Shown here piece after piece: positions 6,087 to 64,000 of a stretch of DNA of 64,000 nt. Source of the DNA: an uncultured Candidatus Saccharibacteria bacterium (GTDB taxonomy: Bacteria > Patescibacteriota > Minisyncoccia > Phycocordibacterales > UBA9973); contig CAYPQU010000002.1 in NCBI GenBank assembly GCA_964412965.1, forward strand, positions 26,004 through 90,003, written 5' to 3'. Made by a program: the position numbers and the translations under genes. The notes beneath the pieces are model-generated. The model searched no databases, was not told where the DNA came from, and saw nothing but the letters and a program-made list of their open reading frames with translations. Numbering within the stretch: the first letter of the stretch is position 1; each line of letters starts with the position of its first letter.

Positions 6087-7070
6087 ATGTCTGATTTAAA
6101 TATTTTATTACCATCAAAATTCACTATTGTTTCAGAAGATGAAACAAAAGGTGTTTATGAAATTGATGGGCTTTATCCTGGATATGGGTTTACTCTGGGT
6201 AATTCTCTAAGAAGAATTATTTTATCTTCTTTACCGGGTGCAGCTATAACATCTTTAAAAATAGATGGTGTTGACCATGAATTTTCAACAATTGATGGTA
6301 TCAAAGAAGACGTTGTCACAATTCTTCTCCATTTGAAACAAATAAGATTTCAGTTAAACTCAGACGAACCACAAATAGTAAAATTAGAGGTAAAAGGACC
6401 TCAAAAAGTTACCGCTGGAGATATTGCTCTACCTGGCCAAGTAGAAGTTCTTAACAAAGATCTTTATATTGCTGAAATAACAAGTAAAACAAGCCTTTCT
6501 ATTGAAATGACAGTTGAGAAAGGATTAGGTTTTATGCCAAAAGATATACACCAAAAAAACAAGAACGAGGTTGGTGTTATTTCCATAGACGCCATATTCA
6601 CACCCATTAGAAGAGTGTCTTATGACGTAGAAGACATGCGTGTTGGTGATAAAACAAACCACAACCGCTTAAGAATAACAATAGAAACTGACGGAACTAT
6701 TACTCCTAAGTATGCACTGGAGCAATCAATCACTATAATGGTGGAACAACTACAATCTATTGTTGGGCGCCAAATAGAGGCCAGAAAACCAAAAACTGAA
6801 ATTGAATCTGATAGTAGCGAAGAAGTTGAAGAGAAAAAAGAAACAAAAGATAAGGAAGATAATGAAATCACAGATATTCTTAAGACACGAATTGACACAC
6901 TAGATCTTTCTACTCGCACCTTAAATGCTTTAACAGGAGCAAATATCAGAACAGTTGGAGGAATTGCTCGAAAAAAGAAAGAGGATTTGCTTGAAATAGA
7001 TGGAATAGGCGATAAGGGTATCCAAGAAATCAAAAGAGTACTTGGTGAATATGGAATAACCCTTAAATAA
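6087..7070 (+). CDS. rpoA: DNA-directed RNA polymerase alpha subunit
   Basis: GYGFTLGNSLRRIILSSLPGAAITSLKIDGVDHEFSTIDGIKEDV in the N-terminal domain and a C-terminal helix-hairpin-helix CTD. The ATG at 6087 is preferred over the TTG at 6072 used by the ORF track. Confidence 0.9.
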   Translation: MSDLNILLPSKFTIVSEDETKGVYEIDGLYPGYGFTLGNSLRRIILSSLPGAAITSLKIDGVDHEFSTIDGIKEDVVTILLHLKQIRFQLNSDEPQIVKLEVKGPQKVTAGDIALPGQVEVLNKDLYIAEITSKTSLSIEMTVEKGLGFMPKDIHQKNKNEVGVISIDAIFTPIRRVSYDVEDMRVGDKTNHNRLRITIETDGTITPKYALEQSITIMVEQLQSIVGRQIEARKPKTEIESDSSEEVEEKKETKDKEDNEITDILKTRIDTLDLSTRTLNALTGANIRTVGGIARKKKEDLLEIDGIGDKGIQEIKRVLGEYGITLK

Positions 7071-9626: not shown

Positions 9627-11534
9627 ATGAGTAAAATAATTGGAATAGATTTGGGTACTACTAACAGTGCTGTAGCAATTATTGAAGGAGGTCAGCCAAA
9701 AATTGTTGAGAACATAGAAGGAGCTCGAACAACTCCGTCTGTTGTGGCTGTTGCTAAAAACGGAGACAGGATGGTGGGTCTTTTAGCCAAGAGACAAGCT
9801 GTGACGAATCCTGAGAATACTGTATATGGAATAAAAAGATTCGTAGGTCATTTATATGATGATGCAGAAATTCAGAAGGATGATAAAATGACTCCGTACA
9901 AAATACAAAAAGGAACAAACGGTGGTGTCGAAGTTAAGTTAGGAGAACAATGGCAGAGGCCAGAAGAAATTTCGGCAAAAATATTAGCAAAAATAAAATC
10001 AGATGTTGAATCTAAGTTAGGAGAGAAAATAACAGGTGCTGTTATCACTGTGCCAGCTTACTTCAATGATGCTCAAAGAAAAGCTACTAAAGATGCAGGG
10101 GAGATAGCTGGATTAGAAGTTCACAGAATAATTAACGAACCTACTGCCGCGGCTTTGGCTTATGGATTTAATAAAAAGAAAAATGAACAAATCGTTGTTT
10201 ACGACTTTGGAGGTGGTACTTTCGATGTTTCTGTTCTAGAGGTAGGAGATGATGTTATAGAAGTAAAATCTACAGATGGAAATTCACACTTAGGAGGAGA
10301 AGATATAGACCAAAGAATAATCGAATGGATAGCAAACGAATACAAGAAGGAAACAGGTATAGATGTTACTAGTGACATGTTGGCGCTTCAAAGACTAAAA
10401 GAAGCAGCTGAAAAAGCTAAGCACGAACTTTCTACAACTCTAGAATCAGAAATTAATATTCCGTTTATAACGTCAGATGCTAGTGGACCTAAACACTTGT
10501 TGATGAAAATGACCAGAGCTACATTAGAATCATTGGCACAAGAATTTATTGATCAATCAATTGAAATAACAAAAAGAGCTATCGCAGCTTCTCCGTTTAA
10601 GATTGAGGATATAGATGAGGTGATACTTGTAGGAGGACAAACAAGAATGCCAGCAATAGTAGAGGCTGTTAAAAAATTGTTCGGCAAAGAACCAAACAGA
10701 TCAATCAATCCAGACGAAGTGGTTGCTATGGGTGCTGCTGTCCAAGCTGGTGTATTACAAGGAGATGTGAGAGACGTTCTATTACTAGATGTAATTCCAC
10801 TATCTCTAGGAATTGAAACACTGGGTGGAGTTTCAACGAAACTAGTAGAAAGAAATACTACTATTCCTAGCTCTAAATCTCAAATATTCTCTACCGCAGC
10901 AGATAATCAAACCTCTGTAGAAATTCATATAGTTCAAGGAGAAAGACCAATGGCTACGGATAATAAATCTCTTGGAAGATTTATTCTAGACGGTATTCCT
11001 CCTGCTCCTCGAGGTGTTCCACAGATTGAAGTTTCTTTTGATGTAGATGCTAATGGTATATTAAATGTGAAAGCAAAAGATAAAGCTTCAGGAAAAGAAC
11101 AATCAATAAGGATAGAAGCTAGTTCTGGTTTGTCAGATGAAGATATCAAGAAGATGAAAGATGAAGCTGAAGCTCACGCAGAAGAAGACAAAAAGAAGAA
11201 AGAATTAGCCGATGAGAAAAATTCTGCAGATATGATGATATTTACAGCAGAAAAATCTCTAAAGGAGTACGGTGATAAGGTTGGCCCAGAAATAAAAACA
11301 GCTATTGAAGAAAAGATAGCTAAAGTTAAAACGGCAAAAGAAGGACAAGATGTAGCTGTAATAAAATCGGCCATCGAAGAACTAACTTCGGAAATGTCTA
11401 AAATAGGAGAAGCAATGAATAAAGCTTCCGCAGAAAATACTGAAAACAAAACTGAGGAAAACAAGACAGATGATAATATCAAGGATGCAGAAGTAAAAGA
11501 AGAAGAAAATCAGAATAAAGAAGATAAAAAATAA
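9627..11534 (+). CDS. dnaK: chaperone DnaK (Hsp70)
   Basis: [29 protein letters not shown] and an acidic C-terminus. Confidence 0.95.
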
Positions 11535-12681: not shown

Positions 12682-13527
12682 ATGATTTTTAATCTGTTGA
12701 AAAACAAGAAACAAGAAGGGTATACTCTAGTAGAAATTTTAGTGGTTATAGCTATTATAGGTATCTTATCCTCTGTGACCTTTGTCGCATTTAGCAGTGC
12801 TCGAGAGAAATCTAGAATGAGTACTGCTAAAATGTTTGAAGCTAACCATGTTGGAGTGTTGAGAAACTATCTAGTAGCGGAATGGAAATTCGAGGATCCA
12901 GTTAATAGGTATATAGATAGTTCAGGGAATGGGCACAATGGATCTTGCTCTGGATCAAGTTGTCCAACAGTTGCTACCGGAGAAGGTTTTAACGGTAAAG
13001 ATGCTATGATGTTTGACGGAATAAATGATGCTATCAACGCAGATTCCGGTACTCTATATTTTCCTTTAAATGTTTTTACTATGTGTGCTTGGGTTAAATC
13101 TTCAGGTCTAGGGGCTGGAATGGTACGGGCTGGTATTTTTGGAATTACTTACGGATTAACCATGTTTTTAACTGGAACTAGTTTTGTTTCTTACATAGAT
13201 GACGGGGTAAGTATCGTTGGAAGATCATTTTCTGTTAATCTATTAGATAACAAATTTCATCATTTATGCGTCAATTATGATGGAATAAAAAGAAATCTAT
13301 TTGTTGACGGAGACGTAAAAGGTAGTTTTACTACTACTTGGAGTGGTACTAGTAAATGGCCAACTCACACATCAAGAATAGGAGTAGAGCTTAATAACCC
13401 CGCCGTCTCTTATTTTAAAGGATTGATAGACGACATTAGGGTTTATTCTTCATATTTAACTGCTTCAGAAATTCAAAAACTATACGCCGAAGAATTATCA
13501 CAGAGAAAACTAGCTGAGGCTAATTAA
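12682..13527 (+). CDS. type IV pilin-like protein with a C-terminal LamG/concanavalin-A-like lectin domain
   Basis: Class III signal peptide KKQEG|YTLVEILVVIAIIGIL, the prepilin-peptidase/N-methylation motif. The C-terminus LIDDIRVYSSYLTASEIQKLY is the hallmark of LamG jelly-roll domains. A TGATATAAT extended -10 box ends ~10 nt before the ATG, so the mRNA may be leaderless. Confidence 0.6.
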   Translation: MIFNLLKNKKQEGYTLVEILVVIAIIGILSSVTFVAFSSAREKSRMSTAKMFEANHVGVLRNYLVAEWKFEDPVNRYIDSSGNGHNGSCSGSSCPTVATGEGFNGKDAMMFDGINDAINADSGTLYFPLNVFTMCAWVKSSGLGAGMVRAGIFGITYGLTMFLTGTSFVSYIDDGVSIVGRSFSVNLLDNKFHHLCVNYDGIKRNLFVDGDVKGSFTTTWSGTSKWPTHTSRIGVELNNPAVSYFKGLIDDIRVYSSYLTASEIQKLYAEELSQRKLAEAN

Positions 13528-14968: not shown

Positions 14969-15597
14969 AATATGATTGTTAAAATTAGTAAAATTAATAA
15001 AATCAAATTTAATATAAATAATATCTTGTATTTTTTTTCTAAACTTAAATTTTTTCTTTTAAGAAAACTATTGTTTATGTCTTTTAATAAAATCTTATCG
15101 TGCATTTCGGTCAACATCTTTCTTACAAGATTAGCAAAAAGTAATTCTTGATTATTGATTTTTGATTCAGATTCTATCACCGTGTCTAATTCTAGTTCGC
15201 TAGAAAATTGTTCTATAGAACTGAGAGGTTGATCATGTATTGTTATGACAAAATTTTGGTTTTTAATAAAGACCATTTTTGACGAACTTTCCGTTGGCTC
15301 TCTTTGTGAAAATTTAATAATACAATAGAGCGTATCATTCTCAATGAAGGTGTTGTGATCTTTAGAAGGACTGTGTATCTCTTGTTTTATATCTTCAGGT
15401 ATCTTGTATTCATCTAAAATATAAACAACCTCTTCTTCTTGAGGCGAGGTTAAATCTATCCAAACGATCCCTTTATTTTTATACTTAGATATCACAAAGT
15501 TATTATAACAACAAGAGAGGAGCTTAAGCAAATGAATACTAATTCGTTTGCTTAGTGTCCGAACGCTGTTGTTATATAGTACTCTATATAACAACAA
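14965..15597 (-). CDS. hypothetical protein with a C-terminal TM helix and weak CorA-N-terminal-like similarity; start uncertain
   Basis: KGIVWIDLTSPQEEE...YKIPEDIKQEI resembles the CorA N-terminus, but no GMN motif is present. The first 31 codons, including the TTG start used by the ORF track, lie inside the 83-bp tandem repeat. A GTG at 15495 is an alternative start. Confidence 0.3.
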   Translation of the reverse strand: MLLYRVLYNNSVRTLSKRISIHLLKLLSCCYNNFVISKYKNKGIVWIDLTSPQEEEVVYILDEYKIPEDIKQEIHSPSKDHNTFIENDTLYCIIKFSQREPTESSSKMVFIKNQNFVITIHDQPLSSIEQFSSELELDTVIESESKINNQELLFANLVRKMLTEMHDKILLKDINNSFLKRKNLSLEKKYKILFILNLILLILLILTIIL

Positions 15598-15737
15598 GAG
15601 AGGAGCTTAAGCAAATGAATACTAATTCGTTTGCTTAGTGTCCGAACGCTGTTGTTATATAGTACTCTATATAACAACAAGAGAGGAGCTTAAGCAAATG
15701 AATACTAATTCGTTCGCTTAGTGTCCGAATGCTGTAT
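15505..15737. repeat. 83-bp tandem direct repeat, about 2.8 copies (units start at 15505, 15588, 15671)
   Basis: The unit ataacaacaagagaggagcttaagcaaatgaatactaattcgtttgcttagtgtccgaacgctgttgttatatagtactctat is repeated near-identically. Each unit carries inverted repeats (ataacaaca/tgttgttat) and, on the plus strand, GAGAGGAGC-N8-ATG plus 7 codons plus TAG. Confidence 0.8.
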
Positions 15738-16226: not shown

Positions 16227-16841
16227 TTGTCTATTTTTTAGGGCATTCTTGATAGTTTCGCTATCTGAGTATTCCAGCTCAGTTCCCGTTGATAATCCAC
16301 GGCCAAGCGAAACTATTTTTATATTATATTTATTAATCAAGGCAGATAGTTTTTCTCGTAAAAACAAATCAGTATGTTCACCCTGAGGGTTAATCGACAA
16401 AGCCAAGATTATTTCTTTTAGAAATCCTTGTTTTGCCCTTTCTTCTACTATGTTCAACAATTCTTTAACTCTCAAAAAACTTAAAACCTCTTTGTTAATT
16501 ATAGGGGCTAAACCACCCAGTATAAAATAGTAGCCGTTGTAAACTTTACTTCTTTTAATGTTTTCGTAATCAGAATCTTTTTCTATAATCAGAAGACAAC
16601 TTTTGTCTGTTTTGGGATTTTTACAATTTTCACACAAATCTGGTTTTTGTGATTGAAAAAATAAAAAACACGAAGGGCATTGATGAATATTATTTTTTAA
16701 ATTCAAAATATTTTTACCCAACTCAGAGACGTATGAGGAATTTTTGTGTAAAAGAAAATATACAAAACGCTTGGCTTGTCGTTCTCCTATGCCAGGAAAT
16801 TCTTTAAAGTATTGTGATAATTTTTCTATTGAATCTTCCAT
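16224..16841 (-). CDS. recR: recombination protein RecR
   Basis: N-terminal HhH (FKEFPGIGERQAKRF), C4 zinc finger (CPSC...CENC) and a Toprim region. Confidence 0.85.
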   Translation of the reverse strand: MEDSIEKLSQYFKEFPGIGERQAKRFVYFLLHKNSSYVSELGKNILNLKNNIHQCPSCFLFFQSQKPDLCENCKNPKTDKSCLLIIEKDSDYENIKRSKVYNGYYFILGGLAPIINKEVLSFLRVKELLNIVEERAKQGFLKEIILALSINPQGEHTDLFLREKLSALINKYNIKIVSLGRGLSTGTELEYSDSETIKNALKNRQ

Positions 16842-16961
16842 CCCGTTAGAAGCAGGTCTCGGTCGTTGTCATTTACAACAAACCAATATTTGCAAATTAA
16901 TCTAATAATGTTTAAATAATTTTATATCTCTTTATCCCGTGACCGAGGCTTCTAACGGGAT
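16840..16961. repeat. copy A of a ~120-nt structured element family (terminal inverted repeats, two internal hairpins, conserved 24-nt core)
   Basis: About 85% identical to 63071-63189. Terminal IR atcccgttagaagc/gcttctaacgggat; hairpins gttgt-cattt-acaac and atcccgt...acgggat. Abuts the recR start codon. Confidence 0.55.
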
Positions 16962-33618: not shown

Positions 33619-33619
33619 A

Positions 33620-33687
33620 GTTTGCTTTCTCTCGGACAAAAAATAAAAAACCTTTCGGCTTTTATTTTTGTGCCCGAGGTGGGAACG
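33620..33687. repeat. direct duplicate (~67 nt, ~95% identical) of the tRNA-Leu 3' end (15 nt) plus its downstream terminator flank
   Basis: gtttgctttctctcggacaaaaa(a)taaaaa(a/g)cctttcggcttttatttttgtgcccgaggtgggaa occurs at 33620-33687 and again at 33780-33845, the second copy being the true tRNA 3' end. Confidence 0.7.
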
Positions 33688-33829
33688 CTTCGCTTATCGC
33701 CGACTACATCGGCAGGTACTTTTCCACCTCGCTTCGCTCGTACGGAAAAGTCTTTCGATTCCCGCACAAAAGCAAAGCAGTTTGCTTTCTCTCGGACAAA
33801 AATAAAAAGCCTTTCGGCTTTTATTTTTG

Positions 33830-33911
33830 TGCCCGAGGTGGGAATCGAACCCACATCCCTTGCGAGACACGATTTTAAGTCGTGCGCGTATACCTATTCC
33901 GCCACTCGGGC
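33830..33911 (-). tRNA. tRNA-Leu (anticodon TAA)
   Basis: The minus strand GCCCGAGTGGCGGAATAGGTATACGCGCACGACTTAAAATCGTGTCTCGCAAGGGATGTGGGTTCGATTCCCACCTCGGGCA folds as a cloverleaf with a long variable arm and anticodon loop CUUAAAA. CCA is not encoded. A small bidirectional hairpin aagcc-gaaa-ggctt plus a T-run follows. Confidence 0.85.
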
Positions 33912-48405: not shown

Positions 48406-48457
48406 GCAAAATAATACTTTTTTTGTTATATTTTTAGAGTTAAATAATAAATTTAAT

Positions 48458-48491
48458 GCGTGTGTAGTTCAGTGGTAGAACGCTGTTCTGA
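48458..48491 (+). pseudogene. 5'-half copy of tRNA-Ile (acceptor 5' strand through anticodon-loop start), one SNP relative to the full gene
   Basis: GCGTGTGTAGTTCAGTGGTAGAACGCTGTTCTGA is identical to positions 1-34 of the full tRNA at 48552, except C31T. Confidence 0.5.
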
Positions 48492-48551
48492 GTTTTTATA
48501 AAAATAAATGGTTCATTCGTTAAAAATGAGAAAATAAATAGTTTCTTGAGT

Positions 48552-48623
48552 GCGTGTGTAGTTCAGTGGTAGAACGCTGTCCTGATAAGACAGAGGTCGA
48601 AGGTCCGATTCCTTCCACACGCA
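48552..48623 (+). tRNA. tRNA-Ile (anticodon GAT)
   Basis: GCGTGTGTAGTTCAGTGGTAGAACGCTGTCCTGATAAGACAGAGGTCGAAGGTCCGATTCCTTCCACACGCA folds as a cloverleaf. Anticodon loop CUGAUAA and variable loop AGGUC match bacterial tRNA-Ile(GAU). The T-loop TCCGATT has an unusual C55. Discriminator A; no CCA. Confidence 0.8.
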
Positions 48624-48667
48624 CTGAGGACATTATTTATTTTTCATTTTAACTCACTGCCATTTAA

Positions 48668-62829: not shown

Positions 62830-63072
62830 TTAAATTTTAATTTCGGGGTTCCTTCTGGTCTCATTCTCTTCTATATTGTCTACAAAATTTTGATCCTGTT
62901 TCATTATCTTTGATAATCTAGCTTTTGTTTCTAAATAAAACAAATACGCAAGATAAATAATAGCGAGTCCGGACACAAAAAAGAGTACTTTTCGCCAGTT
63001 ATTTGGAAATCCTAAATAAGGCAAGATTATCACCCATAAACCAATTAAAAATAATGTTTTTTCTTTTCTCAT
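62830..63072 (-). CDS. hypothetical small membrane protein (80 aa, 2 TM)
   Basis: Two hydrophobic helices. Its start codon is immediately preceded by element B and, ~120 nt further upstream, a near-consensus promoter. Confidence 0.35.
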   Translation of the reverse strand: MRKEKTLFLIGLWVIILPYLGFPNNWRKVLFFVSGLAIIYLAYLFYLETKARLSKIMKQDQNFVDNIEENETRRNPEIKI

Positions 63073-63189
63073 CCAGTTAGAAGCAGGTCGCGGTCGTTAT
63101 CATTTATAACTAACCCATCTCTGCAAATTAATATAATAATGTTTTGAAATTTATTTTTCTTGTCCCGTAATCGCGGCTCCTAACGGGAC
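63071..63189. repeat. copy B of the ~120-nt structured element family; forms the entire 5' leader of the downstream minus-strand small gene
   Basis: About 85% identical to 16840-16961, with compensatory substitutions in all three helices. Hairpins gttat-cattt-ataac and gtcccgt...acgggac. Confidence 0.55.
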
Positions 63190-63199
63190 TCATTTTTAT

Positions 63200-63227
63200 A
63201 TTATACTCCGCAATGAGCTTTTTTCAA
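63200..63227 (-). promoter_or_regulatory. near-consensus sigma70 promoter on the minus strand (TTGAAA-16-TATAAT); predicted TSS ~63192, 2-3 nt before the element B hairpin
   Basis: Minus strand reads ttgaaaaaagctcattgcggagtataat, sitting between the RT stop and element B. Confidence 0.45.
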
Positions 63228-63245
63228 AATTAAATCAAACAAGAC

Positions 63246-64000
63246 TTAAAACCAATTATCATCACTTGTTATTTTTCTCCTCAAATTATAACTATTTGCA
63301 TGCTCGAAATGTCCAAAATAAGATCTTATAACAGGCAGAAACTTTATAGAGTATAAGCCATCTTCTTTGTTTTTATTTTTATACATTTTGTCTTTAAACC
63401 TCCGAACCACCTTTCTTCTTACTAGAGTATGAGTCGGTTTAATATAATAACCAAGAAAGTCTATTCCATGATTAACCTGCCTTAGAAATATCTTATCGGG
63501 GGCCAATTTTAAATTTAACTTCTGATTAAGAAATAGATCAATTTTTTTTATCGTTTCTTCTAATCTTTCTTTGTCTTCATCTAGGATAATAAAATCATCA
63601 ACATATCTAAGATAACGATAAAATTTTAATTCATTTTTTATATAATGATCCAATTTATCTAAATAAATATTTGCAAAAAATTGGCTAGTTAAATTCCCTA
63701 TTGGTAAACCTTTATTTCTATCTCCATAAAACAAAGATTTGTGCTTAGGGACAACGCCTCTTGTATTATTCGCCCCTTTGAAAACATAATTAGATGTTGG
63801 ATCATGAAAAATAATCATTTTTGTTAGCCACAGTATTTCGTCTTTCCACGATTTATCTTTGTCACTTCTCACAATAATCATTTTCATTTCTTCGTATAGA
63901 ATATTTTTGTCTATATTTCTGAAAAATCCCTTGATATCCATCTTTAAATAATACAATCTTCTACCATCCTTTCCTCCTCTTGATATATGATATCTTAATT
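63246..64000 (-). CDS. reverse transcriptase, DGR-type motif set; C-terminal ~250 aa, with the 5' end beyond the window
   Basis: The frame is open to the window edge. RT motif 1 LKMDIKGFFRNID, motif 4 GLPIGNLTSQFFANIYL (the IGxxxSQ variant typical of diversity-generating-retroelement RTs rather than QGxxxSP), motif 5 YLRYVDDFIIL, motifs 6/7 (LNLKLAPDK, GIDFLGYYI), and a short thumb. Confidence 0.75.
   Translation of the reverse strand, partial: LRYHISRGGKDGRRLYYLKMDIKGFFRNIDKNILYEEMKMIIVRSDKDKSWKDEILWLTKMIIFHDPTSNYVFKGANNTRGVVPKHKSLFYGDRNKGLPIGNLTSQFFANIYLDKLDHYIKNELKFYRYLRYVDDFIILDEDKERLEETIKKIDLFLNQKLNLKLAPDKIFLRQVNHGIDFLGYYIKPTHTLVRRKVVRRFKDKMYKNKNKEDGLYSIKFLPVIRSYFGHFEHANSYNLRRKITSDDNWF

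Follow-up and report, generated by a model that had tools for sequence, protein, structure and literature searches.

The window examined here, that is, the whole stretch of 64,000 nucleotides that was analyzed, ends inside a gene that we assign to the reverse transcriptases (RTs) of diversity-generating retroelements (DGRs), with support from several sequence comparisons described below. The open frame lies on the minus strand at 63246-63998, entering from the window edge and closing after 250 codons with a TAA at 63246-63248 (Table 1). Given the length of full-length homologues (~357-362 aa), ~107-112 N-terminal residues of this RT should lie beyond position 64000. A short part of this stretch is readable: two identical Logan contigs, found via the neighbouring DUF4015 protein, end no more than 111 bp past the window end, and in L001, which overruns it by 111 bases, the RT frame continues for a further 37 aa with no stop. 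Sequence identical to the window occurs in the runs SRR11845629 and SRR11845628. This brings the visible enzyme to 287 aa, open and with all catalytic motifs intact, and leaves the N-terminal ~75 aa out of view. On the other side, the RT is followed by chromosomal genes encoding an 80-aa membrane protein, DUF4015, an S41 peptidase, L9 and L27, and the same genes are found in conserved synteny downstream of the RT in L003, a related contig whose RT is 87% identical in protein and 88% identical in DNA. The 173-bp spacer 3' of the RT holds a predicted promoter close to the consensus (TTGAAA-16-TATAAT, 63227-63200, minus strand, 11 of 12 matches in a promoter scan), which would serve the next gene and suggests that the RT is the last gene of its unit.

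Table 1. Features of the window and of DGR loci on related contigs; positions are those of the window unless a contig is named.
Feature	Position	Strand	Basis or comparison
DGR-type reverse transcriptase, C-terminal ~70% (250 aa + partial codon)	63246..64000	-	ORF, translation, homology
RT motif 3, YYLKMDIKGFF / YYLKMDIKGFFRNIDKNIL, first catalytic Asp region	63897..63953	-	aligned to bRT 'HFLKSDFSKFFPSIDRAAL'
~50-aa stretch between RT motifs 3 and 4, without bRT counterpart	63711..63863	-	HMMER alignment, 8ub7
RT motif 4, DGR form GLPIGNLTSQFFANIYL, [I/L]GxxxSQ, contains GLPIGNLTSQ	63660..63710	-	aligned to bRT 'GIPIGSLTSQLFANVY'
RT motif 5, YLRYVDDFIIL	63582..63614	-	aligned to bRT 'WARYMDDIVVL'
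Catalytic YVDD within RT motif 5	63594-63605	-	
RT motif 6, LNLKLAPDKIFL	63483-63518	-	aligned to bRT 'LGLKISHWQV'
RT motif 7, GIDFLGYYI	63441-63467	-	aligned to bRT 'GINFLGYRI'
Intergenic region 3' of RT, downstream DGR boundary	63073..63245	-	no TR; promoter-like site, element copy B
Element copy A, between dnaB stop and recR ATG	16842-16959	- (sense)	
Element copy B, between RT stop and ATG of 80-aa ORF	~63073-63187	- (sense)	
DGR-bracketing inverted repeats, L013 (L014 likewise)	6723-7044 vs 11963-11644		
DGR-bracketing inverted repeats, L007	4655-4815 vs 11393-11233; 11390-11527 vs 13112-12975		
TR/VR pair, L134 (RT 70% identical to window fragment)			TR-adenine mismatches 8/8
TR/VR pair, L136 (same RT protein as L134, P0005)			TR-adenine mismatches 6/6
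TR/VR pair, L006 (RT 60% identical to window fragment)			TR-adenine mismatches 17/18
TR/VR pair, L011 (RT 63% identical to window fragment)			TR-adenine mismatches 29/35
TR/VR pair, L010 (RT 63% identical to window fragment)			TR-adenine mismatches 21/27
TR/VR pair, L013 (RT 60% identical to window fragment)			TR-adenine mismatches 12/17

The fragment matches both the general RT domain of Pfam (RVT_1, E of 5e-15, 56 bits against a cut-off of 29.6) and a phage RT family (PHROG 1423, 'reverse transcriptase', E of 3e-60). In a search against all PDB sequences, its best match is bRT, the DGR RT of Bordetella phage BPP-1 (8ub7, E of 4e-25), whereas non-DGR structures, including group II maturases, Cas-RT, retron-type enzymes and Drt3a, reach 2e-10 or worse. 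P0001, a full-length homologue that is 87% identical to the fragment, aligns to bRT residues 12-315 with an E of 4e-41; for the fragment and P0001 alike, the RT structures of group II introns and maturases score 15-28 orders of magnitude weaker than bRT.

A sequence-only reading had classed this enzyme as a DGR RT from its motif 4 (GLPIGNLTSQ) and had credited the fragment with motifs 1-7. The class held up against the structures and family models, and the window RT combines the two signatures of the DGR clade, a motif 4 of the form [I/L]GxxxSQ and a catalytic YxDD (here YVDD). By alignment position, the motif 4 isoleucine corresponds to bRT I181, a residue with a role in adenine mutagenesis. 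The motif inventory stood in part: motifs 3-7 and the thumb region are present within the window, and motifs 1 (..IIHHVLY) and 2 (ANRLGKGTHMAIRK) are seen only beyond 64000, in the 111-base overrun of L001. In the HMMER alignment to 8ub7, query residues ~38-91, located between motifs 3 and 4, are left unaligned where bRT has only ~18 residues; judging from this alignment, the stretch is a lineage-specific insertion that is conserved in the CPR relatives.

Models for other classes of RT were reached far below their curated cut-offs, at the level of generic RT-domain matches. The top NCBIfam match by score, the group II RT/maturase model TIGR04416, gave 73.7 bits against a cut-off of 300, and the same holds for the retron model NF038233 (54 against 235 bits), Drt3a (56 against 200), Drt2 (55 against 390), Drt4 (34 against 450) and AbiA (27 against 250), as for the whole NCBIfam set of group II, retron, Drt2-5 and AbiA models. 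The best PADLOC matches, RT_UG17 (88 bits) and RT_UG4 (83 bits), are likewise generic, and come from a library that lacks a DGR model; no curated Drt or Abi model of a defence RT was matched at its cut-off. At the RNA level, a scan of the window at Rfam gathering thresholds returned two tRNAs only and no group II intron RNA, and a permissive Rfam scan of 62980-63300, which spans the RT 3' spacer, returned chance-level matches only. Group II intron RT/maturases are the second-best class by sequence, with the fingers-palm fold and the RT motifs in common; in contrast to these, the window ORF is not flanked by ribozyme domains, scores far under the family cut-off, and has a motif 4 of the DGR type. 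Retrons differ again, in that relatives of the window RT carry Avd and a template repeat (TR) at the position of the retron ncRNA.

Homologues of the fragment are numerous (7821 at E of 1e-10 or lower) and, where named, are assigned to Candidatus Nomurabacteria, Paceibacterota or Patescibacteria; the exact full-length RT protein is absent from a collection of 5.8 billion proteins, in which P0001 is the nearest. Upstream DNA is readable in nine relatives, L134 (70% RT identity) together with L010/L011, L013/L014 and L006-L009 (60-63%), and all nine share one order on a single strand: target gene, bAvd, TR in a non-coding gap, RT. The bAvd gene (PF22296) lies directly upstream of the TR in every relative with upstream sequence, and the target genes encode pilin-like or secreted proteins with a C-terminal Lcl_C/DUF1566 domain (PF07603) of C-type-lectin fold. 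A repeat of 110-170 nt joins the 3' end of the target gene, as the variable repeat (VR), to the TR in the gap between bAvd and RT, with mismatches almost only at TR adenines (Table 1), and only 10-45 bp separate the end of the TR from the RT start codon.

The closest relatives present the same locus in truncated form. The contigs L003, L004, L005, L137 and L138 (RT identity of 72% for L004/L005 and L137/L138) have no more than 66-70 bp in front of the RT ATG, and their starts coincide exactly with the homologue of the TR 3' end; for example, the start of L003 ('TGTTAGGTAG..GCCTAGAATTTTGTTTCCAATT') is the homologue of the TR end in L134 and L006. Such starts are the expected signature of assemblies that broke at the TR/VR repeat, and DGR loci of this clade are systematically fragmented in public short-read assemblies. 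Elsewhere among the relatives, L136 carries a tandem duplication (1-814 and 739-1552, 88% identity) of a unit composed of the VR/TR end, bAvd and TR, so that a single RT is preceded by a pair of Avd genes and a pair of TR-like copies. Furthermore, inverted repeats of 160-320 bp with at least 99% identity bracket whole DGR cassettes beside serine-recombinase genes in some relatives (Table 1), and the cassettes so bracketed may be invertible or mobile segments.

Within the window itself, the search for the remaining parts came back empty. A self-BLAST of all 64 kb gave no repeat pair with one-sided adenine mismatches; the relatives' TRs, target proteins and Avd proteins found nothing by blastn or tblastn; HMMs of the relatives' targets and Avd found nothing in the six-frame translation (E above 0.3), with no Avd by either tblastn or HMM (E above 0.5). 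No stretch of the window is AAC/AAT-rich in the manner of a TR (its maximum is 11 per 40 codons, whereas real TRs have 15), there is no TR in the spacer 3' of the RT, and the 66-67 bp that precede the RT in L003 and L004 match the window only by chance, over 11 nt or less. The earlier statement that the window contains no TR/VR pair is borne out by all of these searches. As a candidate for a remote target, we considered a 281-aa protein at 12682-13527 (plus strand), whose N-terminus, on inspection by eye, resembles that of a type IV pilin and whose body resembles LamG; what it shares with the relatives' DGR targets is the pilin leader only (tblastn E of 0.002), it has neither an Lcl_C domain nor a VR, and it was rejected.

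The same reading had placed the TR, VR and avd beyond 64000, and by homology the placement is right, since the RT is on the minus strand and the relatives' parts lie upstream of the RT. Scaled from these relatives, the TR would fall at ~64,360-64,530 (~360-530 bp past the window end), avd at ~64,600-65,050, and the target gene would extend up to ~66,000. Exact 37-mer scans of genome and metagenome contig collections for an extension of the window gave 0 matches, and a protein-guided scan of metagenome contigs gave only relatives at 50% identity or less.

Taken together, we consider it very probable that the window ends inside the RT gene of a chromosomal DGR of the Patescibacteria/CPR type, with the missing parts located just past 64000. 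Reading outward on the minus strand, the remaining ~330 bp of the RT would be preceded by a TR of ~150 nt, with 10-45 bp between its end and the RT start codon, then by the bAvd accessory gene and the target gene, whose pilin-like or secreted product would carry the VR in a C-terminal Lcl_C/DUF1566 domain of C-type-lectin fold. Following the established DGR pathway, the RT-Avd complex would copy TR RNA into cDNA, misincorporating opposite template adenines, and the cDNA would replace the VR to diversify the ligand-binding face of the surface protein. Judging from the cassettes of the relatives, the DGR of this genome would be equally complete, and would be active.

It is also conceivable, if unlikely, that the DGR is an orphan or is decayed, its TR, Avd or target having been lost, rearranged or moved far away, such that the RT is a relic or acts in trans on a remote VR. 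Rearranged cassettes do occur among relatives, such as the duplicated Avd-TR units of L136, and L006-L008 and L013 contain two DGRs bracketed by long inverted repeats beside serine recombinases. However, the visible 287 aa are open with every catalytic motif intact, L003 retains the TR 3' end directly upstream of its RT, the parts are in cis in 9/9 relatives with readable upstream DNA, and the 64 kb contain no remote VR-type sequence or Lcl_C target. We give still less credence to a DGR that was brought here by an integrated prophage or other mobile element and is not part of the host chromosome. The match to PHROG 1423 would fit such an origin, as would the many different genomic neighbourhoods of the relatives, some of them beside serine recombinases or an IS110 transposase; yet the genes downstream are housekeeping genes whose synteny is kept with L003, the adjacent 8 kb contain no phage genes, and the CPR DGR clade is almost entirely cell-encoded (PMC8144416). 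There is next to no chance that the enzyme is a group II intron maturase, a retron RT or a defence RT (Abi, UG or DRT): group II and UG models do head the NCBIfam and PADLOC rankings and some database sources label homologues 'retron-type' or 'group II intron' RT, but the model scores are far under their cut-offs, no intron or other Rfam RNA lies 3' of the ORF, bRT outscores any non-DGR structure by 15 orders of magnitude, and the homologues adjoin bAvd and adenine-mutated TR/VR pairs.

A chromosomal DGR of this kind has known counterparts. A DGR clade restricted to Patescibacteria/CPR and almost entirely cell-encoded has been described as 'DGR clade 2' (Roux et al., 2021; PMC8144416), and the window gene fits it in the taxonomy of its homologues, in the target-Avd-TR-RT order of its relatives and in their C-type-lectin-fold target, an assignment made by taxonomy and architecture. 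The window RT is thus supported, by these comparisons, as a further member of a known CPR-restricted cellular DGR clade, and would not be surprising as such. Compared with bRT, it shares motif 4 (G[IL]PIG[SN]LTSQ[LF]FAN[VI]Y), the Y[MV]DD, motifs 6-7 and the thumb. The two are only ~35% identical, however, and the window RT and its CPR relatives carry the ~50-aa insertion between motifs 3 and 4 that bRT does not. The contexts also differ, cellular CPR as opposed to phage, as do the targets, which are pilin-like/Lcl_C proteins in the CPR relatives and the Mtd tail-fibre protein in BPP-1; furthermore, the short distance from the TR end to the RT start in the CPR relatives is unlike the phage archetype.

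One pair of repeats in the window, of which copy B lies in the spacer directly downstream of the RT and copy A in front of recR, was considered as a TR/VR pair and rejected. The two (16839-16960 and 63070-63188) are 83% identical, and their 18 mismatches are spread over all four bases and include compensatory changes, in agreement with the earlier judgement that these elements are not a TR/VR pair given mismatches that are not adenine-specific. Both copies are intergenic and abut start codons. Nor is the repeat a component of the DGR in another capacity, as it is absent from other DGR loci and present at more than 100 non-DGR sites.

The repeat is an element in its own right. Each copy is a ~115-nt inverted repeat (termini CCCGTTAGAAGC / GCTTCTAACGGG) that ends right at the start codon of a minus-strand gene. 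Using a pattern taken from the element ends (CCCGTTAGNAGCC-N75-100-CCTGCTTCTAAC), we found at least 118 matching stretches in GTDB genomes (L016-L133), all in Patescibacteria MAGs among the matches listed and often in several copies per genome; 2.9 million viral contigs gave no match to the same pattern. Among the matches listed, 106 of 110 copies with flanks are followed by GGG and then ATG or GTG, in one orientation only relative to the gene, and in 93 of the 110 that frame stays open for 100 codons or more, compared with 0-1 for the other frames. The genes downstream are diverse housekeeping genes, as read from their N-terminal sequences, and we take them to include ssb, tsaD, trpS, nusG, dnaA, murD, pilT and trigger factor. 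An ATG is also present at -6 to -4 in 64/110 copies, and where both sides have one, the two bases after it agree between the sides in 59 of 62 cases (39% for shuffled partners); the element is therefore flanked by a 5-nt direct repeat, ATGNN, in which the start codon is duplicated.

The interior of the element is constrained as well. The search pattern dictates the terminal 12-bp arms but not an inner 7-bp helix, and this helix has 48 compensatory cells compared with 8.8 +/- 2.7 in shuffles (none of 500 reach 48). In 70 of 121 copies, an ORF that begins with ATG and spans 18 codons or more runs to a conserved TAA located 4 nt ahead of the gene ATG (2-3 copies in other frames); the peptides end in ..TATCF. 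Copies A and B of the window carry an 8-codon version, M[TI]TT[EA]TCF, whose AUG is placed in a small hairpin loop. Beside copy B (63191-63227, minus strand), the promoter-like site precedes the duplicated ATG (63193-63191) at the copy's 5' edge by 6 nt, so that a transcript would start at or next to this AUG in a leaderless-like manner; several start-codon elements in other genomes have a TGnTATAAT 6-10 nt before the upstream ATG.

Related loci show that the sites vary. The orthologue of copy B in L003 is without the long stem. At the dnaB-recR site, L141 has a different element variant in the same position, L139 has a 62-nt spacer only, and L140 has a 100-N scaffold gap (1521-1620) exactly at the element position with ATGGA on both sides, where the element appears to have broken the assembly too; none of these three relatives offers a clean empty site. 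No autonomous, transposase-bearing version was present among the loci examined, Rfam has no family for element A or the RT 3' spacer beyond chance-level matches, and we found no published description of the element.

We tentatively propose that the copies represent a family of non-autonomous inverted-repeat elements, hitherto undescribed and spread across the Patescibacteria, whose members insert precisely at start codons, a reading to which we give slightly less than even weight. Such an element could be MITE-like, targeting or surviving only at start codons, with translational coupling through the mini-ORF possibly preserving expression of the gene; a conserved and widespread cis-regulatory leader is a possible alternative. 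Correia/ERIC-type elements are bacterial MITEs that act on transcripts and have TA as their flanking repeat. They resemble the present element in size (~115 nt), in having terminal inverted repeats, in occurring several times per genome, in their location in transcribed gene-proximal DNA and in a short flanking direct repeat. The element described here is unlike them in lying exactly at start codons in one orientation, in its ATGNN in place of TA, in the mini-ORF ending 4 nt before the gene ATG, and in that no autonomous partner was found. If the proposal is true, a start-codon element at many CPR housekeeping genes would bear on translation initiation and on the tolerance of mobile DNA.

Three other repeats were seen in the window. 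A tandem array at 15504-15735 comprises 2.8 copies of an 83-bp unit at 98% identity, the unit being an imperfect palindrome (TATAACAACA...TGTTGTTATA), and sits between a CorA-like ORF (annotated from synteny with L139-L141) and the L21 gene. Two pairs of direct repeats overlap or adjoin tRNA genes, one (33619-33685 and 33779-33844, 67 bp, 97%) at tRNA-Leu (33829-33911, minus strand) and one (48441-48491 and 48535-48585, 51 bp, 86%) at tRNA-Ile (48552-48624, plus strand); these could be partial tRNA duplications or att-like sites.

DGRs of this kind are known as frequent elements of ultra-small (CPR/Patescibacteria) bacteria. The informative parts of the present example, its TR, VR and target, would lie ~0.4-2 kb outside the window, at a TR/VR repeat where assemblers routinely break. 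With this locus, a further CPR genome very probably has the means to hypermutate a probable surface adhesin in a targeted manner, in keeping with the established view of DGRs as elements on which episymbiotic ultra-small bacteria depend.
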